Origin: a candidate division NPL-UPA2 bacterium Unc8
GTDB taxonomy: Bacteria > NPL-UPA2
Length of the DNA: 64,000 bases
Assembly: GCA_003574845.1 (NCBI GenBank)
Contig: NDHY01000002.1
Location: forward strand, 16,317 to 80,316
Direction of reading: 5' to 3'
This document shows, piece after piece, positions 4,873 to 64,000 of the stretch. Under the pieces are notes generated by a model. It saw nothing but the letters and a program-made list of their open reading frames with translations, made no database searches and had not been told where the DNA came from. The position numbers were made by a program, and so were the translations under genes. The first letter of the stretch is position 1. The number at the start of each line of letters is the position of its first letter.

Positions 4873-4907
4873 AATAAAGGCGCAAAGGCACAAAGGGGAG
4901 GTAAATT

Positions 4908-7866: not shown

Positions 7867-10305
7867 CTAAATCACAATATTTACTAATTTTCCCCGGGCA
7901 ACAATAACTTTTTTCACTTCTTTCCCGGCAAGCCATTTTTGAATGCGCTTATCATTGAGAGCATTTTCTCTTAAAACTTCCTCACTTGAGTTAGCAGGAA
8001 GTGTAATTCTTCCTCTTACTCTGCCATTGACCTGGATGATAACAGTTACTTCCTCTTCCTCAAGCGCCGTTCTGTCATAGGAAAGCCAGCGCTCATCAAA
8101 AACACTTCTCTTATGACCCGCCATTGTCCAGAGCTCCTCTCCAAGATGAGGAGCGAACGGTGCAATAAGAAGAAAAAGAGTTTCCATCTCTTTCTGCCAG
8201 TCGGATAGGACAATCTGCCGGCGCGCCTTTGCCAAATAGTTAACATACTCCATCAAGGCGCTAATTGCCGTATTGAAGTGAAATCTTTCCATCTCAGCGG
8301 TAACTCTTTTTATTGTATGGTGCTTTATCCTTTTTAACTCCTGAGAATTAGCCGTTATCTTCTGATGGTGACAGTCCTCACTTGCCATTTTCCAGATGCG
8401 GGTAAGGAAGCGGGAAATTCCCCTTATTCCATTATCATTCCATTCACCGCCTTCTTCGTATGGTCCCATAAACATAAGATACATCCTGAGGACATCAGAA
8501 CCATACTGATTGATTAGAGCGTCCGGATTGACAACATTTCCCCGCGACTTGGACATCTTTACACCTTTGTTTGTAATCACTCCCTGATGAACCAGTCTCA
8601 TAAAAGGCTCATCAAAATGAATTAACTTGAGGTCATAGAGAGCTCTGGTGATAAAGCGGGCATAGAGAAGGTGGAGTACTGCGTGCTCAGCCCCGCCAAC
8701 ATAGTGGTCTACCGGCAGCCAGTTTTTTACTGCTTTCGGGTCAAATGCCCCCTTTTCATAGTGAGGGCTTGGGAACCTCAGATAATACCAGGATGAACAG
8801 ACAAAAGTGTCCATCGTATCTACTTCGCGACGCGCTTTCTTTCCGCATTGAGGGCAGGGGGTATTGACAAAATCCGGAATGCTTGACAGAGGAGACTCTC
8901 CACTGCCATGTGTTTTTTTTAGGTCAATTTCAGATGGCAGGAGAACAGGAAGGTCATCTTCAGAAACAGGCACTTCTCCACAGGACTTGCAGTAAATTAT
9001 CGGTATTGGAGCGCCCCAATATCTCTGCCGCGAGATAAGCCAGTCACGCAGCCTGTAATTAATCTTCCGTTTCCCTTTTCCTTCTTTCTCCAGGCAATCA
9101 GCAATCCTTTCCCTGCCATCTCTGGATAAGAGTTCATTAAAGGAGCCGGAGTTAACCATTTTTCCTTCTCCAGTATATGCCTGCTCATTATTAGGGGCTT
9201 TCTCTGGAACAATTACCTGTCTGATAGGAAGATTAAATTTTTTAGCGAACTCAAAATCTCGCTGGTCATGGGCGGGAACCGCCATAACTGCCCCGGTACC
9301 ATAAGAGGTGAGGACATAATCAGCTATCCAGATGGGAATTCTCTCTCCACTTAATGGATGAGTAGCATAGCTGCCGGTAAAGATGCCTGTTTTCTCTCTG
9401 ATGATGGAGGCTCTTTCAATCTCAGTTTCCATTTTTGCCTCCTCAACGTATGCAGCAACTTTTTCTTTTCTTGAGTGAACAGTTAACTCATTCACCAGAG
9501 GATACTCAGGGGCAAGCACCAGATAAGTAACACCAAAAAGTGTATCAGCGCGAGTAGTAAAGACATCTATTGTCTTACTGCTTCTCTCAACAAAAAAGCT
9601 CATTTCTACCCCTTCACTCCTACCAATCCAATTTTTTTGCATAAGAACTGTCTTTTCCGGCCAGTCTATTTTCTTATACCCATGGAGGAGAGCGTCAGCA
9701 TACCTGGTGATTTTGAAGAACCACTGCACAAGGTCCTTTTTTGTTACTGCGGAACTGCATCTTTCACATCTTCCATCAATTACCTGTTCGTTAGCAAGGA
9801 CGGTATGGCATTTGGGGCACCAGTTGACCGGAGCTTTCTTGCGATAGGCAAGTCCATTTTTGTAAAGCTTTAAGAAAAGCCATTGTGTCCACCGGTAGTA
9901 CTGTGGAGAGCTGGTATCTATTTCTTTATCCTCAAAGTCATACATTGCCCCAATTGCCTTGAGTTGTTGTCTGATTTGCTTGATGTTTTCTGCTGTTGAA
10001 TGAGCAGGATGGACGCCTTTTTCAATGGCATAATTTTCTGCCGGCAGCCCGAAAGCATCGTATCCCATCGGTTCAAATACCCGGAATCCCTGCATTTTTT
10101 TATATCTTGCCCATGTATCCGTCGGACCATAGTTATACCAGTGCCCAATATGCAATTTATCAGAGGAAGGATAGTTAAACATAACAAGACAGTAGTACTT
10201 GTGCCTCTCCGGATGAGAAGTATCAATCCGGTGCGTGCCGCTTTCTTCCCACCGCCTTTGCCACTTTGCTTCAATCTCTTTAAACGGATACATAACCAGT
10301 CTCAT
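7867..10305 (-). CDS. leuS: Leucyl-tRNA synthetase
   Basis: 812 aa with HIGH-type motif (HIGHWYNY) and KMSKS. The LeuS-like 'MYPFKEIEAKWQRRW' begins at the fifth codon, so the true start may be 10293. Confidence 0.95.
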   Translation of the reverse strand: MRLVMYPFKEIEAKWQRRWEESGTHRIDTSHPERHKYYCLVMFNYPSSDKLHIGHWYNYGPTDTWARYKKMQGFRVFEPMGYDAFGLPAENYAIEKGVHPAHSTAENIKQIRQQLKAIGAMYDFEDKEIDTSSPQYYRWTQWLFLKLYKNGLAYRKKAPVNWCPKCHTVLANEQVIDGRCERCSSAVTKKDLVQWFFKITRYADALLHGYKKIDWPEKTVLMQKNWIGRSEGVEMSFFVERSSKTIDVFTTRADTLFGVTYLVLAPEYPLVNELTVHSRKEKVAAYVEEAKMETEIERASIIREKTGIFTGSYATHPLSGERIPIWIADYVLTSYGTGAVMAVPAHDQRDFEFAKKFNLPIRQVIVPEKAPNNEQAYTGEGKMVNSGSFNELLSRDGRERIADCLEKEGKGKRKINYRLRDWLISRQRYWGAPIPIIYCKSCGEVPVSEDDLPVLLPSEIDLKKTHGSGESPLSSIPDFVNTPCPQCGKKARREVDTMDTFVCSSWYYLRFPSPHYEKGAFDPKAVKNWLPVDHYVGGAEHAVLHLLYARFITRALYDLKLIHFDEPFMRLVHQGVITNKGVKMSKSRGNVVNPDALINQYGSDVLRMYLMFMGPYEEGGEWNDNGIRGISRFLTRIWKMASEDCHHQKITANSQELKRIKHHTIKRVTAEMERFHFNTAISALMEYVNYLAKARRQIVLSDWQKEMETLFLLIAPFAPHLGEELWTMAGHKRSVFDERWLSYDRTALEEEEVTVIIQVNGRVRGRITLPANSSEEVLRENALNDKRIQKWLAGKEVKKVIVARGKLVNIVI

Positions 10306-10306
10306 C

Positions 10307-10365
10307 TCTCTACTCTCTACTTATTTTGCATTTTGCATTTTTGATTTTCTTTGTGCCTCTGTGCC
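10307..10365. repeat. Modular dispersed repeat, copy 1: TCTCTACTCTCTAC + (TTTTGCA)n heptamer array + CTTTGTGCCTCTGTGCC, abutting the leuS start codon
   Basis: Direct reading. Same flanks and architecture as the copies at 46719-46783 (reverse orientation) and 55440-55522. Confidence 0.8.
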
Positions 10366-10400
10366 TTGTTTAAGTTTAATCTCACTTATTTTGATGTGGA

Positions 10401-14033: not shown

Positions 14034-14061
14034 AATTTTCCCTCTATTTATTTCTCTTGAT

Positions 14062-14411
14062 GGAGCTACTCATAAGCCGGGTTCTGTATAGTGGTGACTA
14101 TTTATCTGTTCATCAGATTGCTCTGATGAATCAAGCAGCCTACCCGGGGGTCAGACGGAACGGGCAATTCCTTCCCCCTTATTTGGCCTTGCTCCAGGTG
14201 GGGTTTACCATGCCCTGCCAGATCACTCCGGCAGGCGGTGAGCTCTTACCTCGCCTTTTCACCCTTACCCTTAACATCAGAGATGTCAAGTGCGGTATAT
14301 TTTCTGTGGCACTTTCCGTCAGGTCACCCTGCGTCGCCGTTAGCGACCACCTTGCCCTCTGGAGCCCGGACTTTCCTCCCGCCTAAGGCGAGCAGCCACC
14401 TGAGTAGCTCC
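14062..14411 (-). ncRNA. rnpB: RNase P RNA, bacterial type A
   Basis: Reverse complement contains near-verbatim conserved blocks of E. coli M1 RNA (GGAGGAAAGTCCGGGCTCC, GGTAAGAGCTCACC, GGTAAACCCCACCTGGAGCAAGGCCAAATAGG, CCCGGGTAGGCTGCTTG, ACAGAACCCGGCTTAT). The P1 helix is GGAGCTACTCA/TGAGTAGCTCC. The track's ORF 14057..14386 is spurious. Confidence 0.92.
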
Positions 14412-20108: not shown

Positions 20109-22911
20109 AACTCTTAAGTCCGGAAGCCACCGACATGTTGCACACCGCCGGGTTCATCAGGACGTTAACCGGGGACTCGGCGAAATGGAAGCTCATACAG
20201 ACCAGACCCGGCGGAACGCGGTCGGTAAGATTTATCTTAGATTTAATTGAGCCGCGGCGGGAAGTCACTTTAACGGTATCCTCGGCATCTAACCCCAGTC
20301 CCTCTGCGTCCTGTGGATTTATTTCCATCCGCTCTTCTTTGATGAGGCTGTTCAAGCCATCGGATTTACCCGTCATGGTTCTGGTATGGTAATGGTAGAG
20401 CTTGCGTCCGGTTGTCAGGATGAAGGGATAGTCTTCATCGGTAGCATCAGCGGCCAGTGGTCGGTATTCTACAGTGGAGAACTGGCCTATGCCGCGGGCG
20501 AATTTGCTTTTGTGCAGTATGGGTGTGCCGGGATGGTCGATGGCGGTGCAGGGCCATTGGAGTCCGCCGGCATCAAGTCGCTCATAGCTCATGCCGCCAA
20601 AGTAGTGTGGTGTCAGCTCTCTTACCTCATCCCATATTTCTTCAGCAGAACTATAGTTCCAGTTAAGGCCGAACCTGTTGGCCAGTTCCTGGATGATTTC
20701 CCAGTCAGCTTTGCTGTCGCCGCGCGGTTTGATGGCACGGCGGATGAGCTGTACCCGTCTTTCTGTATTGATGAAGGTACCGTCTTTCTCGGCAAAGGAG
20801 GCTGCCGGCAAGACAACATCGGCGTATTGAGCGGTTTCGTTCAGGAAGATGTCTTGGACTACCACGAAGTCCATATCTTCTAAGGCTTCACGAACAAGTT
20901 CAGCCTGTGGGCTGGTAAGAACAGGGTTTTCTCCCATGATATACATGATGCGACTGCGCCTGTGAGGGAAATAGTGGAACATCTCAGCTATGGTGCGGCC
21001 GGGCACATCGGAGAGCTCCACTCCCCACGCCCTGGAGAACTTGGCGCGTATCGTATCGCTGACACTCATATTGAGTGATATAGGCTCATCAAACTCTATA
21101 CTTTCAATAACCGAGCTATCAGCCCCCGCCTCCTCCCGGCTGACGGCTGACGGCTGACGGCTGACGGCTCCCTTGAGCCGTTGCCAGTAGGTACCCGTGT
21201 CTCTGTCGCTGTGTACTGGCTGGTAACCGGTCAGGACGTTGGGCAGGCAACCCATATCGCAGGCGCCCTGCACGTTGTTTTGGCCGCGCAGCGGGTACAT
21301 GCCGGCATGTGGTTTACCCAGGTTGCCGGTGAGCAGGGAGAGGTTGGTTAGGGCGACGACATTTTCGGTACCGCAGGTATGCTGTGTTACGCCCATGGCG
21401 TAGAAGATGGAGCCGCTGTCAGCTTGAGCAAAGAGCCGGGCGGCGGTGATAATTTTTTCTGCCGCTACTCCGGTTATTTTGGCGACGTAGTCCGGTGTGT
21501 ATTTTTCAACCATTTTTTTTAGGTGTTGGAAATCCTGAGTGCGGGTCTCAATGTATTCCTGGTCTTGAAGCCCTTCTTTTATGATTACGTGCGCCAGAGC
21601 ATTGAAGAGGGCTATGTCTGTCCCGGGCTTGAATTGCAGGTGTACGTCGGCTATTTCTGCCAGCTGTATACGGCGCGGGTCGGCAACGATCAACTTAGCG
21701 CCATTCCTGACAGCCTGGCGTATTCTGTAACCAATAACAGGTTGACTTTCGGTGGGGTTAATGCCGGTTACTAAAATGGCCCCGGCGCCTGCTATCTCGT
21801 CAACAGTATTTGTCATTGCTCCGCTGCCTAATACGGTGGCCAGACCGACCACGGTGGGGGCATGTCAGAGGCGTGCGCAGCAATCAATACTGTTGGTGCC
21901 CAGAGAGCGCAATAACTTCTGGAAGAGGTAGTTTTCCTCGTTGGTTACCCTGGCTGAACTTAACCCGGCCAGGGCTTCGGGACCGTACTTCTCCTGCGCT
22001 TCCTTAAATTTGGCTGTCACCAGGTCGAGGGCTTCATCCCAGGTGGCTTCCACAAAGACACCGTTGCGCTTAATCAGAGGGGTGGTTAAGCGATCAGGAT
22101 GATTGACAAAGTCATAGCTAAAGCGCCCTTTCACGCAGAGCTGCCCTTTATTGACGACACTATCACGGTCGCCGCGGGCAGAGACTATTTTGTCTCCGCG
22201 TATGCCTAGATAAATCCCGCAACCGGTACCGCAGTAGGGACAGATACTCTTCACTTCACGCTCTGGCTTCCGCATATTTTGGGGGACTAAGGCGCCCACC
22301 GGACATCTCACAACACACTCTCCACAGGACTCACATCTGGATTCTACAATGGGTTTGTCCTTGAGGGTGCTGATTCTGGTATCAAGTCCCCGAAAGGCAA
22401 AGTCGATCGCACCGACTCCGTTAATCTCTTCACAGGTCCGCACGCAGATGCCACACAGAACACACTTATTGGGATCACGGATGAAGAAGGGATTTGAGTC
22501 ATCAAGGGGAAGGTCTCGGGCAGTTCGCTTCAAGCGCTGAAGACGTCCTTCCTCGATGCCGATATAGGCGGCGATATCCTGAAGCTTGCAATCCGTGTTC
22601 CGGGCACACTGGAGACACTCGGAGTAATGGTTTACGATGAGCAGTTCAGCGGCGACTCGACGCATCTTATCTATCTCCGGACCTTCCGTCCGCACCGCTA
22701 TCCCCTCCTCAACCGGCGCCTTACAGGAAATGGTGAGACCCCTTCCCTCGATCTCAACGACGCACAGACGGCACCCTCCGAAGGGCTTTAAGTCGGGGTG
22801 ATAGCAGAGATGCGGGATATAGATGCCATGATCGAGTGCCGCTTGAAGTATGGTATCCTCTTTGTTCGCCATAACCTCTAAGTCATCCAGCTTAAGAACA
22901 ACCTTATCCAT
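20083..22911 (-). CDS. fdhA: Formate dehydrogenase catalytic subunit (molybdo/tungstopterin, NuoG-like N-terminus), selenocysteine-containing; TGA at 21865-21867 is read through
   Basis: Track ORFs 21865..22950 and 20083..21852 are in the same frame, separated only by TGA. The junction reads [33 protein letters not shown], the canonical Sec active-site motif of FdhF/FdhA. An fdhF-like SECIS hairpin sits 12 nt downstream. The likely start is the ATG at 22911, overlapping the upstream NuoF-like stop as ATGGATAA. Confidence 0.85.
21138..21165. repeat. (GGCTGAC)x4 heptanucleotide tandem repeat inside the fdhA coding sequence
   Basis: Direct reading. Encodes the low-complexity segment GAVSRQPSAVSREE. 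The unit length is not a multiple of 3. Confidence 0.9.
21836..21852 (-). promoter_or_regulatory. Candidate SECIS element: hairpin GUGGUC-GGUCU-GGCCAC starting 12 nt 3' of the UGA
   Basis: 6-bp stem (one G-U pair) with the apical loop GGUCU, the same loop sequence and spacing as the E. coli fdhF SECIS. Confidence 0.55.
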
Positions 22912-43463: not shown

Positions 43464-44522
43464 TTATTGAAAGGTATGGATTGCGGTGGACTTGAAAGCG
43501 AGGTAGATGGAGGCTCCCTCCCTTAAGTCTAACTCAGAGAGAGCATTCCCGGTTATCAATACCTTGAATATAACCCAGCCCACTTTTACCTGAACTTCAT
43601 AATAGAATCCCTCTCTGATGATTTTAGAAATCACGCCTCTGAAGTTGTTACGCATACTTGAGGAGAGTCTCTCCCTGCTTATCACTATATCCTCTGGTCT
43701 AATAGCCAGATACCCTTGAGCATCCTTCATCTCCCTTCCCAGTTCCACCTCCAAATTCTGAAGCCATGCCTTGCTACCCTTAAATTCCACCAAAAAGATG
43801 TTCTTCATACCCACGAACTCCGCCACCTCTCTATCTCTGGGGAAAGCAAATACCTCACTCCGCTCCCCGACCTGATGGACCTCACCATTTATGAGCACAA
43901 CTATCCTATCCGCCAGGCGCTGGCCCTGGGCCATATCATGCGTCGTCATTACTATCGTGGTGCCATACCGATGGATAATATTTGTTATGAGTTCTTCAAT
44001 TCTTGATGTTGAAATCGGATCAAGGTTTGCCGTAGGTTCATCCAGTAGTAATACCTCTGGCTCAACCGCTATCGCTCTGGCTATTGCCACCCTTTGTGCT
44101 TCGCCACCAGACAGTGTTCCGGCATTTCTATTCTTATGGTCTGAGAGATTAACCATCTCCAGAATATTATCAACTTTTTGGCGAATACTACTTTTCCCCA
44201 CCCCTCGCCATTTCAGCCCATAGGCAATATTATTATAGACAGTAGTGTTAAATACCACTGGTTTCTGACTTACAAACGCCATTCGTCGCCGTGTCTCTAA
44301 TCCAACCTTCCCAAGCTGGGTAACATCGGTGTCATCAAAATATATCCTCCCCGATGTAGGCATATCAAGCAGGTCAATCAGGCGTAAAAGCGTAGTTTTA
44401 CCAGCACCAGTGGGACCAATCAGGGCAAGAACCTCACCACTTTCCACCTTGATATTGATATTTTTCAGGGATTCTTTCTCGCCAAATCTCTTAGATAGGT
44501 TTCTCACTTCTACTATGACCAT
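43464..44522 (-). CDS. tupC: ABC transporter ATP-binding protein with C-terminal TOBE domain (tungstate/molybdate type)
   Basis: 352 aa. Walker A GPTGAGKTT, LSGGEAQRVAIARA, and a TOBE-like C-terminus. Confidence 0.8.
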   Translation of the reverse strand: MVIVEVRNLSKRFGEKESLKNINIKVESGEVLALIGPTGAGKTTLLRLIDLLDMPTSGRIYFDDTDVTQLGKVGLETRRRMAFVSQKPVVFNTTVYNNIAYGLKWRGVGKSSIRQKVDNILEMVNLSDHKNRNAGTLSGGEAQRVAIARAIAVEPEVLLLDEPTANLDPISTSRIEELITNIIHRYGTTIVMTTHDMAQGQRLADRIVVLINGEVHQVGERSEVFAFPRDREVAEFVGMKNIFLVEFKGSKAWLQNLEVELGREMKDAQGYLAIRPEDIVISRERLSSSMRNNFRGVISKIIREGFYYEVQVKVGWVIFKVLITGNALSELDLREGASIYLAFKSTAIHTFQ

Positions 44523-44524
44523 TA

Positions 44525-45211
44525 TTACCTCTGCTGTATTCTATTCAGGACTACGTTGACTATGAAAGATAGCGACAGGAGAATAATCCCCAGAGCTATT
44601 GCCATCTCTAACTCACCCTTTTGTGATTCCAGCGCTATCGCCGAAGTAAGCACTCTGGTGAACCCCCTTATATTCCCACCGACCATAAGAGCGATTCCCA
44701 ACTCTGAGACGGCTCGTCCGAAACCCATTATGATAGCGGCGACAATGGCGAACCTTGCCTCTTTTGAGATAATTATAACAGCCTGAAAGTCGCTGGCGCC
44801 AAGCGATAGCGCCGTATCCTTAATCGCTTTATCTACACCACTGAGAGCCGAAATGGTTAGACCGAGCAATATCGGTGTGATTAACATCATGTGCCCGATG
44901 ACCATAGTAGTTGGCGTGAAGAGTAGATTTAAGCCACCGATCGGACCGGCCCGAGAAAAGAGGACAAAGACAAGTAAGCCAATACAGACCGAGGGGATAC
45001 TGAATAATGTCTGGATGACATTTATCAAAACTCTCTTGCCCGGGAAACGGTAAAAGTGGATGAGACCGCCAAGCGGTAGGCAAATAAGAGAGGCGAGGAT
45101 AACGGAGGTCGCTGAAATCCCCAGCGACCTCCCGGCTATCTCCATAACCTCTGGGTCAAGCGAGACGATAAGCTCGATAGCTTTGATAAAGGCGTGCCAT
45201 ACTTCAATCAA
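44525..45211 (-). CDS. tupB: ABC transporter permease (tungstate/molybdate type)
   Basis: 228-aa polytopic membrane protein with an EAA-like loop, located between the binding-protein and ATPase genes. Confidence 0.8.
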   Translation of the reverse strand: MIEVWHAFIKAIELIVSLDPEVMEIAGRSLGISATSVILASLICLPLGGLIHFYRFPGKRVLINVIQTLFSIPSVCIGLLVFVLFSRAGPIGGLNLLFTPTTMVIGHMMLITPILLGLTISALSGVDKAIKDTALSLGASDFQAVIIISKEARFAIVAAIIMGFGRAVSELGIALMVGGNIRGFTRVLTSAIALESQKGELEMAIALGIILLSLSFIVNVVLNRIQQR

Positions 45212-45223
45212 TGGATCTTACTC

Positions 45224-46153
45224 CTATTCTTTAGGTTCTGCCCCGGCACAAGGGATGAATAGCGGCATCCCAAACTCCTCAACGCCGTAATTGCCGATGA
45301 GTTCCTGTATTTCAGGTGAGGTGAGGAATTCTATGAGGTTATTGGCCATCTCAATATTGGTTTTGGGATGCCTTTCTGGATTTATGGCAATGGCGGAGTA
45401 AACATTGAGCAATATAGCTCCTTCATCCACGAGCGGCACCAAATCCACTTCACCCCCGAAAGCGAGAAAAGTCCCCATATCAACCAGAGTATAGGCCTGC
45501 TTCTCACTGGCCATAAGGAGGGTTGGACCCATTCCTCTTCCCGCTTCTATATACCACTTCCCGGCTCTTCGAACTGCTTCATAATCATAGCCCGCTCCTC
45601 TCCAGATTGCCTTCTCCTTGCCATGGGTCCCAGAAGCATCTCCTCTGGAAACAAAGCGCCCGAGGCCGGTTTCCATCAATCTCTTGAAAGCTGCCTCTGG
45701 GCTTAGACCTTTAATGCCTGCCGGGTCATCTGGTGGTCCCACAATGAGGAAATAGTTGTAAGCAAAGACAACTCGCTGGACACCATAACCCTCGGCGACG
45801 AATTTCTTCTCATAGGCTTTGGCATGAGTAGCGATAACATCTACATCTCCTCTCCTTCCCCACGCCAAGGCTATCCCGGTTCCGGCATAAATGATATCTA
45901 ACTCTACATTGAATTCCTTCTCAAACATCGGTTCCAGGTGCCCCCACAGACCGGTGTCATAAAGGCTGGTGGTAGTAGCTACTCTCATTCTTTCCACGGG
46001 CCGCAGTGCCTCAACCGTTGGTGGTGCGGGAGGCAGTACCTCAACCGGTGGTGGTACAGGAGCACGTCCCACCCTACCTATAAACAGGCCAAGGAGTACT
46101 ATTACTACCAGTCCTCCTATCATCTTACCTATTCTTTTACCTCTTTTACCCAT
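45224..46153 (-). CDS. tupA: Periplasmic tungstate-binding protein, TupA family (start taken at the internal Met MGKRGKRIG...)
   Basis: The TTTSLYDTGLW motif (TTTS..D[T/S]GL) is the TupA/WtpA-type oxyanion-binding signature. A signal/transmembrane segment precedes it. Confidence 0.75.
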   Translation of the reverse strand: MGKRGKRIGKMIGGLVVIVLLGLFIGRVGRAPVPPPVEVLPPAPPTVEALRPVERMRVATTTSLYDTGLWGHLEPMFEKEFNVELDIIYAGTGIALAWGRRGDVDVIATHAKAYEKKFVAEGYGVQRVVFAYNYFLIVGPPDDPAGIKGLSPEAAFKRLMETGLGRFVSRGDASGTHGKEKAIWRGAGYDYEAVRRAGKWYIEAGRGMGPTLLMASEKQAYTLVDMGTFLAFGGEVDLVPLVDEGAILLNVYSAIAINPERHPKTNIEMANNLIEFLTSPEIQELIGNYGVEEFGMPLFIPCAGAEPKE

Positions 46154-46301
46154 TATTTTTCTCCTTATTTTTTCATTTACCCTCATTTTTCCCGCTGAAC
46201 AACAGTCCCTTAATGACTTTGAAATTTTAACATTTTCCCCAACATTTTCCCCTCCTTGTCTTTTTTTATTTACCCTCATTTTTACGGTCTGCTTTCACAA
46301 C

Positions 46302-46339
46302 ATAAAAAAACCAGCTCCCATGAATTTAGAGAGCTGGTT
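46302..46339 (-). terminator. Intrinsic terminator/attenuator: 9-bp stem AACCAGCTC / GAGCTGGTT with a 13-nt loop, followed by UUUUUUUAUG, about 150 nt upstream of the tupA start
   Basis: Direct reading of the minus strand: GGCGAUAACCAGCUCUCUAAAUUCAUGGGAGCUGGUUUUUUUAUG. Confidence 0.7.
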
Positions 46340-46608
46340 ATCGCCGAGACGCCAAAGCCTGCTGAGACGCTGAATTATTTCCTGCGTTTCTGCGGCCAAA
46401 GGGTTCTGCGTTTGCTCCTTTCCAAACACGGGAGGTATCCCGATTTCTCAAAATGCCCTATCGCTCCGATGCCATATCTCATTATTAAGACTTAGGCGCC
46501 CGGAGTCGGAGCCATATTTAATTGTTAAAGCATATCATGCCACAATATTAGGGGATGTCAAGAAAAATCTTAGGAAGAGAAAACATGGTCAGACCTCAAC
46601 AAAATGAG

Positions 46609-47024
46609 TGGGTAGTAGGTAGTAGGTAGTGAGCAGGTAACAAGTCATTAGCTAAAGTAAAGTATGAGCAAAGTAATGTTAACATATTGAATTTCAATCT
46701 CCTACATTAGTAAATAAAGGCACAAAGAATTAAGTTGTAAGTTGTAAGTTGTAAGTCGTAAGTTGTAAGTAGAGAGTAGAGAGAAAAGAGAGATGAAATT
46801 GGAAATTAGAAATTGGAAATTGGGTGTAGTGTAGCCCTTTATGGGCGTAGAGAGTAGAGAGAAGAGAGTAGAGAGAGATGAAAATGGAAATTGGAAATTG
46901 GAAATTAGTAAGTGGTGGGTAGTAGGTAGTAAGTAGTTTAGGGTTTAGGGTTTAGGGTTTAGGGTTTAGGATTTGTAATTGATAACTGGTGTTCTGGTGC
47001 TCTGGTGATCTGGTGATCTGGTAA
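46609..47024. repeat. Repeat island of consecutive different short tandem arrays: (GGTAGTA)n, GGCACAAAG, (TTGTAAG)x5, GTAGAGAGTAGAGAG, (GAAATTG)x3-4 (twice), (TTTAGGG)x4.7, (CTGGTGNT)x4
   Basis: Direct reading. It includes two tandem copies of the modular element at 46719-46783 and 46841-46935 and two mini-ORFs at 46793-46834 and 46878-46922. Confidence 0.9.
46719..46783. repeat. Modular dispersed repeat, copy 2 (reverse orientation): GGCACAAAG-AATTAAG-(TTGTAAG)n-TAGAGAGTAGAGAG
   Basis: Its reverse complement, CTCTCTACTCTCTAC-(TTACAAC)n-TTAATTCTTTGTGCC, has the same architecture as 55440-55496. Confidence 0.85.
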
Positions 47025-47125
47025 GTTATTTTTTGTGTTCCCTACTAAGGATACATAATATATCTTATGTCAAGTAAGCAAAAAAACTAAAGAGGATAAC
47101 ACCAAAATACAAAACAAACCTCCCA

Positions 47126-47479
47126 TTAACCAATTTTACCATCAAAAACTTCCTGAAAATCATATCTACTTTTAAAGTCATCCTTACTATCCTGATCAGT
47201 CTTACTCATAAGTCCCATTTCAATCATGTTGAATACAATCTCTCCAAAGTCCTCTGTTTTCCTTATTCCCCAATGTTCAAAAACAGTTCGGGTCATCAAG
47301 CCAAACTGCTGCAAGCCATATTCCCTGATTCCATCCAGAAGTTCCTGTCCACTTACATGCAGCTTCTTCAGCCTGCTTTGGGTAAAATTAAGAGCATCCA
47401 TTGTAAAGCTATATGCATCAGGATGATAGCGATTATCTTTTTCAGCAAGTTCTTCTATTTTTCTGAAAAAATCAACCAT
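47126..47479 (-). CDS. Hypothetical conserved small protein downstream of ilvD
   Basis: 117-aa ORF with no recognised family. Tightly linked to the ilvD stop. Confidence 0.4.
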   Translation of the reverse strand: MVDFFRKIEELAEKDNRYHPDAYSFTMDALNFTQSRLKKLHVSGQELLDGIREYGLQQFGLMTRTVFEHWGIRKTEDFGEIVFNMIEMGLMSKTDQDSKDDFKSRYDFQEVFDGKIG

Positions 47480-47487
47480 TTTAAACT

Positions 47488-49137
47488 TTATCTCATTGCT
47501 GCTCCATGACTTGCATCAAGACAACCTTGTTCATACCAGCTCAAACACCCCTTAATGTCTCTTTCCCGTGGTTGCCATTTTTTTATCCGTGTTTCAAGTT
47601 CATCCCTGCTAATATCCAGGTTAAGTTTTCTATTGGGAATATCTATTGAAATATAATCTCCCTCGCAAACAACTGCTATTGGGCCTCCAACCGCTGCCTC
47701 CGGCACTATATGACCAATACAAGGCCCTCGCGTACCTCCAGAGAATCGCCCATCGGTAATCAGCGCTACTGAATCTGACAAACCCCGCCCGCAGATAGCG
47801 GCAGTCGGAGCAAGCATCTCACGCATTCCAGGGCCACCCCTTGGCCCTTCATATCTGATGACTACCACATCTCCTTCTTTTATTTTATCTGAGGTAATTG
47901 CTTCATAAGCATCCTCTTCACATTCAAAGACGCGCGCCGGCCCACGTACTTTGAGCATTACATCTGCTACTGCAATTTGTTTTACCACTGCTCCATCAGG
48001 AGCCAGTGACCCTTTTAGTATGGCAATGCCGCCTTCCTTGTGCACAGGATTGGCGAGAGGACGAATTACATCTTCATTTGATACAGAAACATCAAAAATA
48101 TTGTCCACTACCCTCTTTCCGTTGACAGTGAGGCAATTTAAGTTAAGCAATGTTTGTAATTGCTTCATTACTGCAGGCACCCCGCCAGCATTTTCCATAT
48201 CAATCATAAAGTATTTGCCACCTGGCCTCATATCACAAAGATGAGGAGTATCCCGACTTAACTCATCAAAGGTTTCAAGGGGAATATCAATCCCTGCCTC
48301 GCGGGCAATCGCCAGCACCTCGAGCGTATCATTGGTAGAGCCTCCTATTGAAAGAGACACTCTTATCCAGTTCAGGAATGCCTTTTTAGTCATTATTTTC
48401 CTTGCATTAATGTCATTCTTAATAAGATTGACGACTTGCCTGCCACTCATCTCTGCTAAATGCACCTTTCTCTCGCTAGCAGCATGAGAAGTAGCGCATC
48501 CCGGGAGAGATAATCCCAGTGCCTCTGTTCCACAAGCTAAGGTATTGGCGCTGAACATCCCGGCACAGCTTCCTGCCCCGGGACAAGCACACTCCTCCAG
48601 TTCGCGGAGCTCATCCTCCCTCATCTCGCCGCCAGATGCCTTACCTACTGCCTCAAAGACACTGATTATATCTACCCTATCTCCCTGAAAATTTCCAGGA
48701 AACATAGGGCCACCCGTAACGACAATAGTTGGAATGTCCAATCGACCAGCCGCCATCAGGTGACCGGGAACGACCTCATCACATGCAGCGATAAGAACCA
48801 TTCCATCAAGAGCATGCGCCTCAATCATTATTTCAATAGAGTTAGCAATTACATCTCGGGATGGCAAAGAATACTTCATTCCCTTATGTCCTATTGCCAG
48901 CCCATCGCAGACGGCAATAGTACTGAATTCAAATGGCATTCCACCGGATTTCCTTATTCCCTTTTTCACCGCATCTGAGAGTTCTCTCAGGTGAATATGA
49001 CCAGGCACAATCTCCGTCCAGGAATTAACCACTGCAATGAACGGCTTGGTCATATCCTTTCTTGTTACTCCACACGCCTTTAAGAGAGAGCGGTGAGGTG
49101 CTCGTTCCAACCCATCCTTAATTAAATTGCTTCTCAT
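47488..49137 (-). CDS. ilvD: Dihydroxy-acid dehydratase
   Basis: 549 aa with IlvD/EDD family motifs ([15 protein letters not shown], Cys ligands for the Fe-S cluster). Confidence 0.95.
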
Positions 49138-49344: not shown

Positions 49345-49409
49345 GCTGTAGTCACGCTAATCCGCTGACAATTATATCTGACAGAGAAAGGAAGATAGGT
49401 ATTGCAAAG
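49345..49409 (+). repeat. 65-bp direct repeat, left copy (GCTGTAGTCACGCTAATCCGCTGACAATTATATCTGACAGAGAAAGGAAGATAGGTATTGCAAAG)
   Basis: 64/65 identical to 50438..50502. Confidence 0.9.
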
Positions 49410-49416: not shown

Positions 49417-50336
49417 GGGGTCAGGTCTTGCAATATAACAAAAGATATGCTATATTGGCAACATGACCAGACCATTACGGATAGAATTTAACGGAGCAGT
49501 TTATCATATCACTTCCAGAGGAAATGCTAAGCAGACGATCTTCCTTGATGAGAAAGACTTTGCTGATTTCCTTGGAGTCTTATGTCAGGTGGTAAAAAGA
49601 TATCACCTCATATTACATGCCTTCTGTCTGATGAATAACCATTATCATCTGCTTATTGAAACCCCTGAAGGTAACTTATCAAGAGGGATGAGACAATTAA
49701 ATGGTCTATATACCCAACGATTCAACCAAAGACATCAGAGAGTTGGGCATCTTTTACAGGGCAGGTACAAAGCGATTCTGGTAGATAAAGATAATTATTT
49801 ACTGGAACTTTGTCGCTATGTGGTGTTAAATCCGGTAAGGGCAAAAATAGTAAAAGACCCCAAAGACTGGAAATGGAGTGCTTATCGGGCAACTATAGGC
49901 TATAAAGGAATTCCCTGTTTAACGACAGATTGGATACTTTCTCAATTTGGCAACGAGAAAAAAGCAGCCTCCAGACAATATCAAGAATTTGTCTACTCCG
50001 GGATAAAAGCAGAATCACCCTTAAAAGTGGTAAAGGGGCAATTGTTTCTTGGCCAGGATAATTTTATGGATAAGATGAAATCCTTGATTGCAGGCAAAGA
50101 AAAATTAAAAGAGATACCGAGAGAGCAGCGCTATATAACCAGGCCACCCTTAAAGGAAATTTTTGATTATAAGGACAAGGAGTCAAAAGATCAAGCAATG
50201 TATGAGGCTTGCTTACAGTATGGCTATACCTTAAAAGATATAGCAGAATATATTGATGTGCATTATACTACAGTGAGCAGAGTGATTAAAAAAATTGAGG
50301 GGGAAAATGAAAAGTGATATTGCAAGACCTGACCCC
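49417..50336 (+). mobile_element. Candidate minimal insertion element: Y1/HUH transposase-like gene bounded by 20-bp perfect inverted repeats (49417-49436 GGGGTCAGGTCTTGCAATAT; 50317-50336 ATATTGCAAGACCTGACCCC)
   Basis: Inverted repeats read directly. A sigma70-like promoter (TTGCAA-17-TATATT, 49428-49456) lies in the left end and predicts a leaderless transcript starting at the ATG at 49463. Confidence 0.45.
49463..50317 (+). CDS. IS200-like (Y1 HUH) transposase-family protein with C-terminal DnaA-C-like HTH (COG1943-type, 'transposase and inactivated derivatives')
   Basis: N-terminus MTRPLRIEFNGAVYHITSRGN...HAFCLMNNHYHLLIE has the HUH-type HxH and YH motifs. The C-terminus YTLKDIAEYIDVHYTTVSRVIKKIE is an HTH. 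Confidence 0.7.
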   Translation: MTRPLRIEFNGAVYHITSRGNAKQTIFLDEKDFADFLGVLCQVVKRYHLILHAFCLMNNHYHLLIETPEGNLSRGMRQLNGLYTQRFNQRHQRVGHLLQGRYKAILVDKDNYLLELCRYVVLNPVRAKIVKDPKDWKWSAYRATIGYKGIPCLTTDWILSQFGNEKKAASRQYQEFVYSGIKAESPLKVVKGQLFLGQDNFMDKMKSLIAGKEKLKEIPREQRYITRPPLKEIFDYKDKESKDQAMYEACLQYGYTLKDIAEYIDVHYTTVSRVIKKIEGENEK

Positions 50337-50437: not shown

Positions 50438-50502
50438 GCTGTAGTTACGCTAATCCGCTGACAATTATATCTGACAGAGAAAGGAAGATAGGTATTGCAA
50501 AG
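50438..50502 (+). repeat. 65-bp direct repeat, right copy; immediately upstream of the methyltransferase RBS/ATG
   Basis: 64/65 identical to 49345..49409. Confidence 0.9.
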
Positions 50503-53824: not shown

Positions 53825-55423
53825 TTACGTATGACATACCCTGTTTCGTCCTTCATATTTGGCTTTATACAATTGTTTATCTGCTTGAGATATTAAGCTA
53901 TCTTCATCTGTTACTTCTTGAGATGGGAATGTTGCCACACCCAAACTGATAGTTACTTTAAGCGGACTGTCCTGTCCGGGAAAAGGATGTTTTTCCACTA
54001 AAGTGCGCAATCGCTCAGCAGCAACAGCAGCCAGTTCAGTATCAGTATAAGGATATATCACTACGAACTCCTCACCGCCATAGCGTGCCGCTACATCTCC
54101 TGCCCGCAGGCCTTTCTTTAGTAATTCAGCTATCTCCTTCAGTACAATATCTCCCTGAGGATGACCATAGGTATCGTTGACTTTTTTGAAATGGTCTATA
54201 TCAATCATAATTAGAGACAGTAGATAGTCATATCGTCTGGCACGACTTATATCTTCAGTTAACTTTGTCCCGAAATGACGACGATTAAACAGCCCGGTTA
54301 GTCCATCAGTTATGGAAAGAAGTTCAATTTTTTCATATAACTGAGCACTTTCCAGTACTGCAGCAATCTGATGAGTCAGAGTTTCCAGAGTACGTATCAT
54401 AGAGGGCTCTGGCTGACCAACTGTATCCGTTCCCACTGCAACCACTCCTTCAAGTTTATCCTTGACTATCAGTGGACTAAAAAGGTGAACGCTGTAGCGG
54501 TCTTTTCTTCTGAGGATCTTCTTCTGCAAAAAGTTCTTTTTATTTGATAAGGGACGGATAGCTAATTGAGGATTTTTCTCCTGAATCACCTTGTTGAGCG
54601 CTTTCTCATCTACCTGCCAGTCGGTTCTGTCCTCATTAGAAGGATAGGTCTTTTCCTGAAGCTTTCCACCCATAGCAAGAAAAAGCTTTAATCTGGAATA
54701 TCCAAGTTTATTAGCAATACCCTCCAGCATTGAGTTTAATATCTCATCTATTTTCAGAAAGCCAGAAACCTTCGTGCCTATCTCGTACAGAGCAAGGAGG
54801 TCCACATTGAGCTTCTCAAGTTCCTTCTCTTTTATCTTTATCTTGCTGGCTACCTGGCCGGTAGAATATGTGATTAAACTCAGAAACCCCGACAATGCAA
54901 CAATGCTCATCACAATGTGAGGAACACTCTGAAAAATAGGTAAATCTCCTACCATTATTTCCGGCCCAAGATAGGGAATTACCTCAAAGTATGTCCACCC
55001 AAGAAGGGTACTGTAAAGCATTATTGACAACATACTCATTATTACGCTCAGCCTGTAATTAGCATGAAGAGCGGTCCCGGAGGCTTGAAGTATATAGCCA
55101 ATGATGATTGGACTGAGCAATCCACCTGTGAGGTAGATTATGATGGTTAAGACAATAATATCTATCGTAATGATAATATTGGTAACGAGGTCAAGATGCA
55201 ATCCTTTTCTGAAAAAGTAATATGCCCCACAGTTAGCTAAAAGATACAGGAGAATTACTACAGAAGCCACCCGCGGATAAAAGAGCAGACCAAAGTAAAA
55301 GAATAGAACTATCGCAAAAAGTGTCAGGAAAGTTGCTACAAAGCGGAATATTGCAGCCCAGACGAGCTTCTGTTGTTTTTCAGCAAATTCTATGTCCATC
55401 GCTTTATCCATCGTCTTCCCCAT
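53825..55423 (-). CDS. Membrane-anchored diguanylate cyclase (multi-TM sensor + GAF-like + GGDEF)
   Basis: GGDEF domain with RYGGEEFVVIY. Five to six N-terminal transmembrane helices. First ATG (MGKTMD) is preceded by GGAGGTG. Confidence 0.85.
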   Translation of the reverse strand: MGKTMDKAMDIEFAEKQQKLVWAAIFRFVATFLTLFAIVLFFYFGLLFYPRVASVVILLYLLANCGAYYFFRKGLHLDLVTNIIITIDIIVLTIIIYLTGGLLSPIIIGYILQASGTALHANYRLSVIMSMLSIMLYSTLLGWTYFEVIPYLGPEIMVGDLPIFQSVPHIVMSIVALSGFLSLITYSTGQVASKIKIKEKELEKLNVDLLALYEIGTKVSGFLKIDEILNSMLEGIANKLGYSRLKLFLAMGGKLQEKTYPSNEDRTDWQVDEKALNKVIQEKNPQLAIRPLSNKKNFLQKKILRRKDRYSVHLFSPLIVKDKLEGVVAVGTDTVGQPEPSMIRTLETLTHQIAAVLESAQLYEKIELLSITDGLTGLFNRRHFGTKLTEDISRARRYDYLLSLIMIDIDHFKKVNDTYGHPQGDIVLKEIAELLKKGLRAGDVAARYGGEEFVVIYPYTDTELAAVAAERLRTLVEKHPFPGQDSPLKVTISLGVATFPSQEVTDEDSLISQADKQLYKAKYEGRNRVCHT

Positions 55424-55439
55424 CTTATTAATCACCTCC

Positions 55440-55570
55440 TCTCTACTCTCTACTTACCACTTACCACTTACGACTTACGACTTAATTCTTTGTGCCTTTG
55501 TGCCTTTGTGCCTTTGTGCCTCTCTCTACTCTCTACTTACCACTTACTACTTACTACCTACTATCTACTC
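55440..55570. repeat. Modular dispersed repeat, copies 3 and 4 in tandem: [TCTCTACTCTCTAC-(TTACCAC/TTACGAC)n-TTAATTCTTTGTGCC(TTTGTGCC)3][CTCTCTACTCTCTAC-(TTACTAC)n], abutting the GGDEF gene RBS
   Basis: Direct reading. Reverse complement of motif blocks in 46719-46935. Same flanks as 10307-10365. Confidence 0.85.
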
Positions 55571-55681
55571 ATTTTACCTCTATTCATACCAGCTAAGTCA
55601 GTTGGTGTCAAACTTTTATGAAGCGAGAATCACTTAATTGTGATATAAATAAAAAAGCATTCAGTATTTGACCGGGGTTTA

Positions 55682-62029: not shown

Positions 62030-64000
62030 TCTTTCCTACTGCTTTGCGACTCAGGCTGATTTTACCATCTGCATCTATCCTGATTACCTTAACCGGAAAC
62101 TCATCATGCACTTTTACCTCATCTTCAACTCTTTTTACATGATAATCAGCCAACTGCGAAATATGAAGCAAGCCTTCCTGCTTTGGCAGAATCTCAACAA
62201 AGGCACCAAAGTCCATTATCTTTTTCACCTTCCCGGGGTAGACCACGCCAACCTCTGCACTACTGGTAAGAGCTTTGACCATCTCTAATGTCTGCTGCGC
62301 TCGCTCGCTATCCGGTGCCGAGATGGAGACCTCCCCGCTATCATCAACATTTATCTCGGAATCTGTCCGCGCCATTATTTCCCTGATATTTTTTCCTCCA
62401 GGACCAATTAAATCTCCAATCCTATTCTTGTCAATACAGGTGAGTACTATCGTGGGGGCAAACTGAGAAACAGACGACCTGGGAGAAGAAATTGCCTCAT
62501 CCATTTTATCAAGAATTGACATTCTGGCAGATTGCGCTCGCGAGAGTACCTCCTTCATAATTTTAGCATCTACTCCATCAACTTTTAGGTCCATCTGGAT
62601 TGCCGTAATTCCATTTCGCGTACCAGCTATCTTGCAATCCATATCACCAAAATAGTCTTCGGCTCCACTAATATCAGTAAGGATTTTAAAATCATTACCC
62701 TCTTTGATAAGCCCCATCGCTACCCCGGCGACAGCAGACTTTACTAATACCCCAGCATCCATCAAGGATAACGATCCACCGCAGACAGTCGCCATTGACG
62801 ATGAGCCATTAGATTCTAAAATATCGGAGACGATGCGAATCGTATAAGGGAAATCCTTCCCTGAAGGAATAACCGCTCTGAGTGCCCGCTCTGCCAATGC
62901 TCCATGCCCGATCTCTCTTCTTCCAGGACCTCTCATTGGCTTGACCTCACCAGTACTAAAAGGAGGAAAATTATAATGGAGCATAAAAGCTTTTTTGTAC
63001 TCTCCTGCTAATTCATCCATTCTTTGCTCATCACGAGAGGTGCCAAGAGTGGTGATAACAAGACTTTGTGTCTGCCCGCGAGTAAAGAGCGCGGAACCAT
63101 GGGTGCGAGGTAAAACTCCCACCTCGCAACTTATTGGCCTGATTTCCTCAATACTTCTTCCATCAATCCTTTTGCTCTCTGCCAGCACCTGCTGACGTAT
63201 GCTGCGCTTTTCTACCTGCTCAATAGCAGCCATAATTTCTGCTTTTTTCCCAGGATACAGGGCTATGCAACAATTTAGTATATCACCATTGAGTATACGT
63301 CTTTTTTCTTGCCTTTTCTGCCGCTCAGTAATAGCAACAATTTCAGTCATTTTTCCATTAGTAAGTTCTTCTACTTTGAGTTTGATTTCCTCACCAATTT
63401 CAAATATGTTCAATCTACGCTTCTCTTTGGAACCAGCTTGTTCAATCAACGTTTCAATAAGCGAAATAATACCTTTCAGCGCTTCATGTCCAAAAAGGAG
63501 CGCATCCAAAACAATCTCTTCGCTTACCTCTCCAATGGCTCCCTCAACCATATTGATTCCATCAACTGTTCCTGCAACAACAAGGTCCATATTCCCTTCA
63601 GCAATCTGGAGGTTAGTCGGATTAACAATAAAATTGCCATCCTTTGATGCACTTAAACGACCAATCCGCACTGCTCCCATTAACTTCTGATATGGAGCGC
63701 CCGAGAGTCCCATAGCGGCAGAAGCACCAATAACGGCTAAAATATCAGAGTCGTTCTCGGCATCTGCAGAGAGAACAGTAGATATTATTTGAATATCATT
63801 TCTCATTCCAGATGGCAATAGTGGACGTATTGGTCTATCAATAAGCCGCGATGTTAAAATTTCTTTTTCAGTCGGCCTGCCTTCTCTTCTAAAGAATCCA
63901 CCAGGAATTCTCCCCGCTGCATAAGTCCTCTCCCGATAGTCAACAGAAAGAGGAAGATGGTCTATATCACTCCCTGCAGATGCCCCGGTAACAACAGTTG
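61995..64000 (-). CDS. pnp: Polyribonucleotide nucleotidyltransferase (PNPase), 5' end beyond window
   Basis: RNase PH domains, KH and C-terminal S1 domain. The track ORF starts at an internal Met and the frame stays open to the window edge. Confidence 0.9.
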   Translation of the reverse strand, partial: TVVTGASAGSDIDHLPLSVDYRERTYAAGRIPGGFFRREGRPTEKEILTSRLIDRPIRPLLPSGMRNDIQIISTVLSADAENDSDILAVIGASAAMGLSGAPYQKLMGAVRIGRLSASKDGNFIVNPTNLQIAEGNMDLVVAGTVDGINMVEGAIGEVSEEIVLDALLFGHEALKGIISLIETLIEQAGSKEKRRLNIFEIGEEIKLKVEELTNGKMTEIVAITERQKRQEKRRILNGDILNCCIALYPGKKAEIMAAIEQVEKRSIRQQVLAESKRIDGRSIEEIRPISCEVGVLPRTHGSALFTRGQTQSLVITTLGTSRDEQRMDELAGEYKKAFMLHYNFPPFSTGEVKPMRGPGRREIGHGALAERALRAVIPSGKDFPYTIRIVSDILESNGSSSMATVCGGSLSLMDAGVLVKSAVAGVAMGLIKEGNDFKILTDISGAEDYFGDMDCKIAGTRNGITAIQMDLKVDGVDAKIMKEVLSRAQSARMSILDKMDEAISSPRSSVSQFAPTIVLTCIDKNRIGDLIGPGGKNIREIMARTDSEINVDDSGEVSISAPDSERAQQTLEMVKALTSSAEVGVVYPGKVKKIMDFGAFVEILPKQEGLLHISQLADYHVKRVEDEVKVHDEFPVKVIRIDADGKISLSRKAVGKNEGKSCQDSGK

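Follow-up and report, generated by a model that had tools for sequence, protein, structure and literature searches.

Background

Tandem arrays of heptanucleotides were first described from cyanobacteria in 1990 and are known from a few other lineages, with no agreed function. Here we describe arrays of this kind in candidate division NPL-UPA2 bacterium Unc8, centered on a repeat island that lies between the tungstate transporter gene tupA and a gene encoding a 117-aa protein. The stretch analyzed, called the window throughout, is 64,000 nucleotides long and corresponds to Contig_2 16317-80316 of the Unc8 metagenome-assembled genome (MAG), as placed from the gene coordinates in the supplement of the genome paper; positions given below are those of the window. 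The island is probably a non-coding, hypervariable array of arrays, of the type known as short tandemly repeated repetitive (STRR) sequences or long simple sequence repeats (SSRs), that was built by slippage and ectopic recombination and does not regulate the tup genes.

Heptanucleotide arrays are cited as the commonest class of long SSR in prokaryotes (Mrazek 2007, as quoted in PMC4679880). In marine Beggiatoaceae, direct repeats of TAACTGA stand just upstream of start codons, and the same unit occurs in some Cyanobacteria and Bacteroidetes (MacGregor 2015, PMC4679880). Xanthomonas and Nostoc have GGGNATC heptamers that fold into G-quadruplexes (Rehm 2015, PMC4692102), and contiguous heptamers affect the expression of recF and recO in Nostoc, according to a preprint. 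Geobacter metallireducens has paired, multicopy intergenic sites consisting of 3-5 tandem units of 7-9 nt, for which binding of a global regulator has been proposed (Aklujkar 2009, PMC2700814).

The Unc8 arrays resemble cyanobacterial STRR sequences and long SSRs (units of 5-11 nt) in that heptamers dominate, many units are adjacent, and the arrays are dispersed, intergenic and variable in copy number; they differ in their host, an NPL-UPA2 bacterium with a ~1-Mb genome, in their units, and in being ordered into a cassette with exact junctions common to several loci. The units called in the island are not known to match any of the cyanobacterial STRR units, and the host is not a cyanobacterium. 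As with the TAACTGA repeats, an array can stand immediately before a gene, (TAGAGAG)2 abutting both the leuS ATG and the ribosome-binding site of a GGDEF gene. The unit is different, however, there are many unit types, and the island examined here precedes no annotated gene on its G-rich strand; TAACTGA itself is not among the arrays called in the window. TTTAGGG, one of the island units, is a G3N4 heptamer that is intergenic between co-directional genes, like the GGGNATC heptamers, but it forms a single array in one strain type only, and the G-quadruplex is in this case a prediction. Unlike the Geobacter sites, which are opposite-strand pairs, the island has no inverted partner, although arrays of an octamer found in metagenomes (see below) do pair. 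Variation of simple-repeat copy number among close strains is also a property of phase-variable loci in pathogens; those loci have units of 1-5 nt in an ORF or promoter spacer, whereas the units here are 7-8 nt long and lie outside the promoter and outside any supported ORF.

Neither the paper on the NPL-UPA2 genome nor the subsequent Cedars/Hakuba study contains the word ‘repeat’. The kind of array that we describe is already known, and the observations fit a known class; new are the lineage of the host, the very small size of its genome and cassettes that are ordered and shared among loci.

Nine adjoining arrays in the largest gap of the window

Unc8 belongs to an uncultured candidate phylum, is an acetogen, and comes from serpentinizing springs at The Cedars (pH 11-12, energy-starved). 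Its MAG comprises 996 kb in 24 contigs, which were joined and extended by hand. Coding sequence makes up ~94% of the window and intergenic sequence ~6%. The gap between tupA and the 117-aa gene is the largest, spanning 846 bp to the longest tupA ORF and 1002 bp to the start assigned by PGAP, the Prokaryotic Genome Annotation Pipeline of NCBI. A preliminary description of this locus had singled it out as the outstanding non-coding feature of a compact genome, which holds, and had described 850 bp to ~1 kb of arrays; the gap is indeed of that size, but only ~420 bp of it (46600-47025) is repeat DNA. The non-repeat parts are 46124-46600, which contains the tupA leader, an intrinsic terminator, a molybdenum cofactor/tungsten cofactor (Moco/Tuco) riboswitch and a promoter, and two unique blocks (46646-46708 and 47036-47125) that are kept across species. 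The neighboring genes are all on the minus strand, in the order ilvD (47488-49137), the 117-aa gene, tupA, tupB and tupC.

Tandem Repeats Finder (TRF) called nine adjoining arrays with units of 7-8 nt between 46607 and 47022, confirming that arrays with different units stand back to back at this site. On the plus strand these are (AGTAGGT) x3.4 (46607-46630), (TAAGTTG) x5.7 (46731-46770), (AGTAGAG) x2.3 (46768-46783), (GAAATTG) x4.1 (46795-46823), (GTAGAGA) x4.1 (46847-46875), (GAAATTG) x3.9 (46880-46906), (TAGTAAG) x4.6 (46906-46937), (GTTTAGG) x5.6 (46936-46974; TRF score 71) and (CTGGTGAT) x4.6 (46986-47022; TRF score 60). The (GTTTAGG) array contains four full TTTAGGG units and is strain-specific, and the (CTGGTGAT) array lies within the strain-specific distal half of the island. 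With its four full G3 tracts, the TTTAGGG array is predicted to be G-quadruplex-capable on the plus strand.

A duplicated module with two mini-ORFs, also reported previously, is present. Two 63-nt copies (46761-46823 and 46846-46908, plus strand) align without gaps at 84% identity; copy 1 consists of (TAGAGAG)2, AAAAGAGAG, an ATG and (GAAATTG)4.1, and copy 2 of (GTAGAGA)4, an ATG and (GAAATTG)3.9. Copy 1 includes mini-ORF1, encoding MKLEIRNWKLGVV followed by a stop (46793-46834), and copy 2 includes mini-ORF2, encoding MKMEIGNWKLVSGG followed by a stop (46878-46922). Both are on the plus strand with the sequences given originally, and the peptide sequence of each is fixed by the heptamer unit. 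Between the modules, the segment GCCCTTTATGGGC (46834-46846, read from the sequence) can form a 4-bp GC hairpin and is the same in two other strain assemblies, L002 and L008; it is the sole C-containing piece of the array block and appears as a small hairpin in folds of both strands. The head of the island (46602-46636) recurs at 46902-46936 with 80% identity, in the TRF-called array (TAGTAAG/TAGGTAG) x4.6 (46902-46937, plus strand; direct-repeat family D2).

The plus strand has just 11 C in 292 nt at 46731-47022, and 78-nt windows along the minus strand of the island contain 23-30 C and 0-4 G. Folding of the plus strand is no better than that of shuffled sequences, and minus-strand RNA has almost no structure, with -32 kcal/mol over 431 nt. 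A search of 46250-47200 against Rfam at a permissive E-value returned only the riboswitch and one match at chance level.

Arrays are in excess over chance throughout the window, where chance expectation was taken from 30 dinucleotide-preserving shuffles. There are 42 arrays (9.5 ± 2.8 when shuffled), and 23 have a period of 7 or 8 (2.5 ± 1.6 when shuffled, a ~9-fold excess). All but two of these 23 are intergenic, and they occupy at least seven separate intergenic sites in 64 kb, filling short spacers upstream of leuS, the GGDEF gene and the genes that start at 4908, 33719 and 53759. Another leader array lies just beyond the window (L144 13763-13788). The window has 0.36 arrays of 7/8-nt units per kb, loci of sister species have 0.56 and unrelated control loci 0.02. 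The arrays are thus like long SSRs and STRR sequences in each respect considered: their units run head to tail more often than chance allows, they are dispersed and intergenic, and copy number varies among close relatives.

The only strong heptamer array within a long ORF is (CGGCTGA) x4.7 at 21137-21169, in a segment at 20-25 kb with 52-56% GC. Near 21870, just upstream of this array, an in-frame TGA stands in a C-A-R-L-U-H-like context, which suggests a selenocysteine formate dehydrogenase; such an enzyme would fit a tungstate transporter.

A composite cassette shared with other leaders

Parts of the island recur exactly at other sites. The 18-mer TAAGTAGAGAGTAGAGAG (46766-46783) occurs exactly four times in the window, where 0.01 occurrences would be expected, and the 22-mer GCACAAAGAATTAAGTNGTAAG and 24-mer AAAATGAGTRGRTAGTAGGTAGTA have two exact copies each. 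Read on the G-rich strand, the parts follow the order AAAATGAG-(TAGGTAG)n ... (GCACAAAG)n-AATTAAG-(TNGTAAG)n-(TAGAGAG)n, and then a start. The cassette head in the island (46601-46636, plus strand) is AAAATGAG followed by the TRF-called array (TGGGTAG/TAGGTAG) x3.4, with a 24-nt pattern that is also found at 55575-55552 on the minus strand; the cassette core (46720-46770, plus strand) is the GCACAAAG-AATTAAG junction followed by (TTGTAAG) x5.7, and its 22-nt junction is exact at 55495-55474 on the minus strand. The core is shared with island B (55439-55575, minus strand), which carries the ordered cassette upstream of the GGDEF gene (53825-55435), as its 5' leader, and terminates at the GGAGGTGA ribosome-binding site of that gene. 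Island C (10306-10375, minus strand), composed of (GCACAGAG/GCACAAAG), (AAAATGC)n and (TAGAGAG)2, abuts the ATG of leuS (7867-10305; TIGR00396, 1051 bits).

The exact multi-array junctions, in matching order in the GGDEF and leuS leaders, indicate that a dispersed composite cassette is copied in the island, and their presence in several islands indicates that duplication or recombination has carried sequence from one locus to another. The orientation of the copy is unusual. The mRNA sense strand is the G-rich one in all seven of the other leader islands; here the G-rich strand is the plus strand, antisense to both neighbors, with no annotated gene downstream. Islands B and C and the other leaders have an array directly before a gene start, and the only start codons after arrays in the tupA gap are the ATGs of the mini-ORFs. 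Because no gene follows on the G-rich strand, the two modules look like orphan cassette ends. TAAGTAGAGAGTAGAGAG precedes the leuS ATG, and the cassette-ATG context in the island is identical to that of this real start.

Beyond the movement of sequence evident from the shared junctions, an earlier proposal that the island is the landing site or remnant of a mobile element has no direct support. There are no inverted repeats or mobile-element ends within 46560-47060 and no transposase in the gap, as a miniature inverted-repeat transposable element or insertion sequence remnant would have. The nearest transposase-like gene (49463-50317) encodes a REP-associated tyrosine transposase (RAYT; NF047646, 86.6 bits, cut-off 80), and a link to it was rejected because its flanking repeats are unrelated to the arrays. 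These comprise two direct repeats of 65 nt with 98% identity (49345-49409 and 50438-50502) and an inverted pair, GGGGTCAGGTCTTGCAATAT and ATATTGCAAGACCTGACCCC. Three sister-species loci (L019-L021, see below) have no RAYT, methyltransferase or MFS gene between the radical-SAM gene and ilvD.

Turnover among strains and sister species

The island was compared with nine contigs of the same species, which include the separately deposited assemblies L002 and L008. Against L002, the ilvD-side flank is 99.7% identical and the tup-side flank 98%, and 145 nt between them (47022-46877) cannot be aligned; in their place L002 and L008 carry 202 nt of other arrays, with units GTCACCA, TGGTAAA/TGGTCAA, AATCACT and CTTTGTGC (x4). 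Three further contigs (L006, L007, L009) break off inside this alternative allele. The TTTAGGG array, the ATG and (GAAATTG) part of module 2, and mini-ORF2 do not occur in L002 or L008. All three assemblies that extend across the position of mini-ORF2 lack it, and the alternative allele stands at the start of two shorter contigs; mini-ORF1 is kept in every strain that reads through its position. The proximal half of the island (46560-46877) is reproduced in L002 and L008 except for one 14-nt indel, which reduces the proximal (ACTTACA)n array from 5 units in the window to 3. A stretch of 49 nt in the alternative allele, with a junction between two arrays, matches island B of the window at 96% identity, which makes the alleles mosaics of common building blocks. 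Searching the window and 144 other loci, we found the (TTTAGGG)n and (GAAATTG)n arrays outside the island only in L001.

Assembly quality bears on these comparisons. Five of the nine contigs stop 80-210 bp past the stop codon of the 117-aa gene. L001 crosses the island only by means of an N gap and has an extra partial copy; its distal half is unbroken up to 46852. The window-type distal half is seen in data from the GPS1 spring only (the window and L001), and island B is collapsed in L003, gapped in L001 or truncated in other assemblies. Given the manual closure of the MAG, the contig breaks and the N gap, exact copy numbers are uncertain. For further alleles of the tup side, queries with tupB, tupC and the final gene of the window gave none on record, and a scan of genome contigs with the 117-aa protein returned only homologs of ~50% identity from other phyla, the species itself not being among them, and hence no information on synteny.

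Five loci from sister species (L019-L023; IlvD 85-90% identical) retain the gene order S1, truA, GGDEF, radical-SAM, ilvD and 117-aa gene. Syntenic equivalents with array-rich spacers therefore exist in relatives, but there is no tupABC downstream and the 7/8-nt units are mostly different. L019 has a cassette of its own, (GGTTCAGA)n-(GAACCCA/GAACGGT)n, that recurs upstream of lytB and the GGDEF gene. The array units of sister species contain C, and C-depletion was dropped as a general rule. Neither mini-ORF is found in sister species and mini-ORF2 has no counterpart in the alternative allele. Only the two unique blocks of the gap survive across species.

In L019, inverted (AGGCACAA)n and (TGTGCCTT)n arrays bracket ~400 nt at 2235-2645. 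This stretch contains a degraded four-helix-bundle gene together with repeats of the ‘cattccgaacgaagtgaggaatc’ and ‘ctcagaatgacaag’ types.

Control of tupABC and the conserved blocks

The tupA gene (45224-46123, minus strand) encodes a tungstate-binding protein of 299 aa from the PGAP start (Pfam PBP_like_2, K05772). NCBIfam TupA (NF041772) is its best match (E = 2.4e-51), yet the score of 174.7 bits is below the 400-bit cut-off. The gene is expressed in situ, according to the supplement of the genome paper, and tupB (44525-45211) and tupC (43464-44522) follow downstream on the same strand. Between the island and tupA, all on the minus strand, we find a predicted sigma-70-type promoter, a riboswitch and a predicted intrinsic terminator. 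The promoter (46534-46561) has TTGACA, a 16-nt spacer and TG-CATGAT, so that it agrees with 10 of the 12 consensus positions and has an extended -10 TG; it lies directly upstream of the riboswitch, and its -10 region is kept in L019 (by eye). The riboswitch (46399-46523) is a match to Moco/Tuco RF01055 (72.2 bits, gathering score 36; E = 1.8e-15) that spans the full covariance model with the P3 columns deleted in the alignment. P3-less representatives of this family accompany tungsten-cofactor genes (Regulski 2008), and the Unc8 riboswitch combines the absence of a P3 stem with a downstream tupABC. We predict it to be of the Tuco type, with ligand specificity judged from P3 absence and gene context. 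The terminator (46304-46339) consists of CCAGCUC...GAGCUGG followed by U7, the T-run being read from the sequence, and its hairpin of 11 bp is present in both the minimum free energy and centroid folds of 46530-46285.

With these three elements all positioned between the island and tupA, control of tupABC most likely lies with the promoter, riboswitch and terminator and not with the repeats. A leader-peptide attenuator, one of the roles first proposed for the island, is not supported: the mini-ORFs are on the opposite strand, upstream of the tup promoter, there is no stable structure, and the operon has its own riboswitch and terminator.

The 5' region of tupA (46034-46290) is polymorphic, with 75 nt in L001 and 207 nt in the window. 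In L001, tupA has a different N-terminal signal peptide (MLKLKVTGLLFSGLL...), and the window has an in-frame stop at the equivalent place. The tupA leader of the window contains two direct repeats, AAAAATGAGGGTAAAT and GGGGAAAATGTT, each present twice, and a 30-nt tandem duplication lies within tupA (46003-46062).

On the other side of the island, the 117-aa protein (B9J77_01370; 47126-47479, minus strand) belongs to the Minf_1886 family (NCBIfam TIGR04138, 146.7 bits, cut-off 60), and its gene is the last of the ilvD unit; the coordinates agree with Contig_2 63442-63795 in the supplement of the paper. Block 1 (47036-47125, minus strand) is the unique 3' flank of this gene and has a weak hairpin with a T-run and an ACATAA-N6-TTATGT inverted repeat. 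Compared over 47135-47036, its identity to L019-L021 is 89%, and that to L022 and L023 is 85-89%. As a terminator its fold is weak and no better than that of shuffles, and it contains no convincing promoter and no Rfam match. Block 1 is non-coding, yet its 89% identity over 100 nt is found where IlvD is only 90% identical, and a run of ~43 nt, CTTACTTGACATAAGATATATTATGTATCCTTAGTAGGGAACA, is identical across species (by eye).

Block 2 (46646-46708) is a unique 63-nt segment with the minus-strand core TTTGCTCATACTTTACTTTA and the palindromes TTGAAATTCAA and ATGTTAACAT. It is 94% identical in L019-L021 (L019 12669-12731) and 84-85% identical in two copies in L022 (3374-3421 and 3953-4001). It lies ~85 nt upstream of the tup -35 hexamer, and three of four copies sit 60-90 nt upstream of promoter-like sequence (by eye). 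No conserved RNA structure was found in it on either strand, and since it also precedes promoter-like sequences, block 2 is more likely a DNA-level site and may be a protein-binding site. A weak plus-strand promoter-like sequence, TTAACA-18-TACATT (46679-46708; 9 of 12 positions), lies within it.

Elsewhere in the window, a bacterial class A RNase P RNA is present at 14058-14411 (302 bits), and the 109-aa ORF that overlaps it on the opposite strand is spurious. A scan for tRNA and tmRNA genes in the window found none.

Origin of the island and alternative explanations

The reading that we consider probable, an array of arrays built without a role in tup regulation, would involve two processes. 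Slipped-strand mispairing would add or remove whole units, and ectopic recombination or gene conversion between dispersed islands would swap whole blocks; such swaps would account for the exact multi-array junctions that occur in matching order at other leaders. At those leaders the cassette has its G-rich, C-depleted strand as the sense strand of the mRNA and runs up to a real gene's start codon or ribosome-binding site. In the tupA gap, two cassette copies would stand in an orphan orientation, their terminal ATGs reading into the next heptamer array and giving rise to mini-ORFs as a by-product. Transcription of tupABC would be attenuated by the promoter, riboswitch and terminator when tungsten cofactor is sufficient.

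Both the mini-ORFs and the resemblance to telomeres are most likely incidental. The mini-ORFs appear to be by-products because they are on the wrong strand, one is strain-specific, neither occurs in sister species, and the repeat sets the peptide. A telomeric repeat, to which the (TTTAGGG) array had been likened, was rejected: the array is internal, between two operons, has four full units, is one unit among many, and is not part of the alternative allele of five other same-species contigs. The suggestion of a hypervariable contingency region stands as far as variability between strains is concerned, but a classical contingency (phase-variation) locus was rejected, as the variable arrays lie outside the promoter spacer and any reading frame, ~45-460 nt upstream of the tup -35 hexamer.

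Several points weigh against our interpretation. The MAG that provides the structure was closed by hand, and the island is a place where assemblies from short reads break. A gap of 850-1000 bp in a 1-Mb genome that is 94% coding is hard to reconcile with pure neutrality. Either strand may have a function; the weak plus-strand promoter-like site in conserved block 2 is just upstream of the arrays, and with a cassette-ATG context identical to a real start, the mini-ORFs could be translated if the plus strand were transcribed. C-depletion, moreover, is not a rule in sister species, where units contain C. Slippage and recombination are themselves deduced from patterns in the sequences rather than observed.

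Two alternatives assign a role to the RNA of one strand or the other. The island could be an orientation-dependent RNA module, its C-free strand serving as a Rho-refractory leader and its C-rich strand as a rut tract, so that a Rho-dependent insulator before the tup promoter would stop read-through from the ilvD/117-aa unit. A minus-strand transcript of ~300 nt would have the composition expected of a Rho-loading site and almost no structure, only a weak hairpin follows the stop codon of the 117-aa gene, Unc8 carries and expresses rho (B9J77_02115), and the G-rich strand is consistently the sense strand in the other leader islands. This case is one of composition, however, and the arrays of the alternative allele hold both G and C (GTCACCA, TGGTAAA, CTTTGTGC), those of sister species are not C-depleted, and the orientation bias could stem from leaders being purine-rich in general; we regard it as unlikely. 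Broadened to the repeat cassettes in general, the same idea would make them portable, orientation-dependent RNA modules, spread and homogenized by gene conversion, that act as C-free, unstructured, Rho-resistant leaders ending in a start site when in sense and as Rho-loading insulators in antisense, which we think is quite unlikely. If it were true, the sharing of (GGCACAAA)n, an octamer array described below, with array-rich contigs of many unrelated environmental bacteria, in which it often makes the stems of hairpin elements able to carry four-helix-bundle or GxxExxY genes, would hint at a common, undescribed mechanism that makes or uses 7-8-nt arrays. A small plus-strand unit divergent from the tup promoter is an equally slim prospect. 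It would start in block 2, have the cassette as leader, and yield one or two micro-peptides or a small RNA, running antisense into the 3' end of the 117-aa/ilvD unit. The TTAACA-18-TACATT site lies inside a block conserved across species, the cassette-ATG context is as at real genes, and mini-ORF1 is kept in all strains that read through it. Mini-ORF2, on the other hand, is missing from the alternative allele (spanned by L002 and L008 and present at the start of L006, L007 and L009), sister species have no counterpart, the heptamer array dictates the peptide sequence, the promoter match is 9/12 from a scan that yields no more sites than shuffles, and the plus strand has no terminator that we could find, no structure and no Rfam family.

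The arrays could also act through DNA, as a contingency-type tuner of tupABC in which gain or loss of units would shift the distance and helical phase of a factor-binding site in block 2 or block 1 relative to the promoter, so that transcription would differ between strains. A (TACCTAC)3 array does lie between block 2 and the -35 hexamer, the island is polymorphic in copy number and content, and contiguous heptamers near promoters modulate expression in Nostoc (the preprint cited above). Yet that array has 3 units in every strain seen, the polymorphic arrays are upstream of block 2 and far from the promoter, no binding factor is known, and the operon already has a riboswitch, all of which makes a tuner very unlikely. 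An assembly artefact, in which the module duplication and the order of arrays are a mis-join from manual gap closure, seems to us highly improbable. The hand extension and joining of the MAG, the five contigs that stop at the island, the N gap and extra partial copy in L001, and the state of island B in L003 (collapsed) and L001 (gapped) would all be in keeping with it, but the proximal half is reproduced in L002 and L008 bar the 14-nt indel, the distal half is contiguous in L001 to 46852, and the arrays recur in many assemblies and species.

Octamer arrays in other metagenomes

The octamer GGCACAAA is the one unit common to the window, the alternative allele and sister species. Within the window, (GGCACAAA)n occurs at 4876-4896, 10350-10370, 46720-46727 and 55488-55521. 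A metagenome scan for (GGCACAAA)2.4 retrieved at least 120 contigs (L024-L143) from many habitats, with 32-72% GC, and this range indicates that the octamer array is not specific to NPL-UPA2. Among the 120 matches listed, these contigs have 0.45 period-7/8 arrays per kb, and in 44 of the 120 an inverted array follows (GGCACAAA)n within 600 nt, in the order X...rc(X) (reverse complement) in 41 cases and the reverse in 3. Some of the long spacers between paired arrays encode four-helix-bundle (TIGR02436) or GxxExxY (TIGR04256) proteins. We rejected a general link of the arrays to four-helix-bundle/GxxExxY mini-elements: the window has none, a sister species has a degraded copy, and the association is seen at 7 of the 120 listed loci. 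A literature search for the octamer sequence itself gave nothing relevant.

Implications for NPL-UPA2

The arrays are abundant in a streamlined genome of ~1 Mb, where spare DNA should be costly, and the islands are break points of short-read assemblies in the NPL-UPA2 lineage. The local annotation is corrected in that tupABC is placed under a predicted Tuco-type riboswitch, which fits an acetogen with an apparent selenocysteine formate dehydrogenase. Although the organism is uncultivated, its small genome, ordered cassettes, natural alleles from the springs and existing metatranscriptomes make it a workable case for the function of arrays in leaders.

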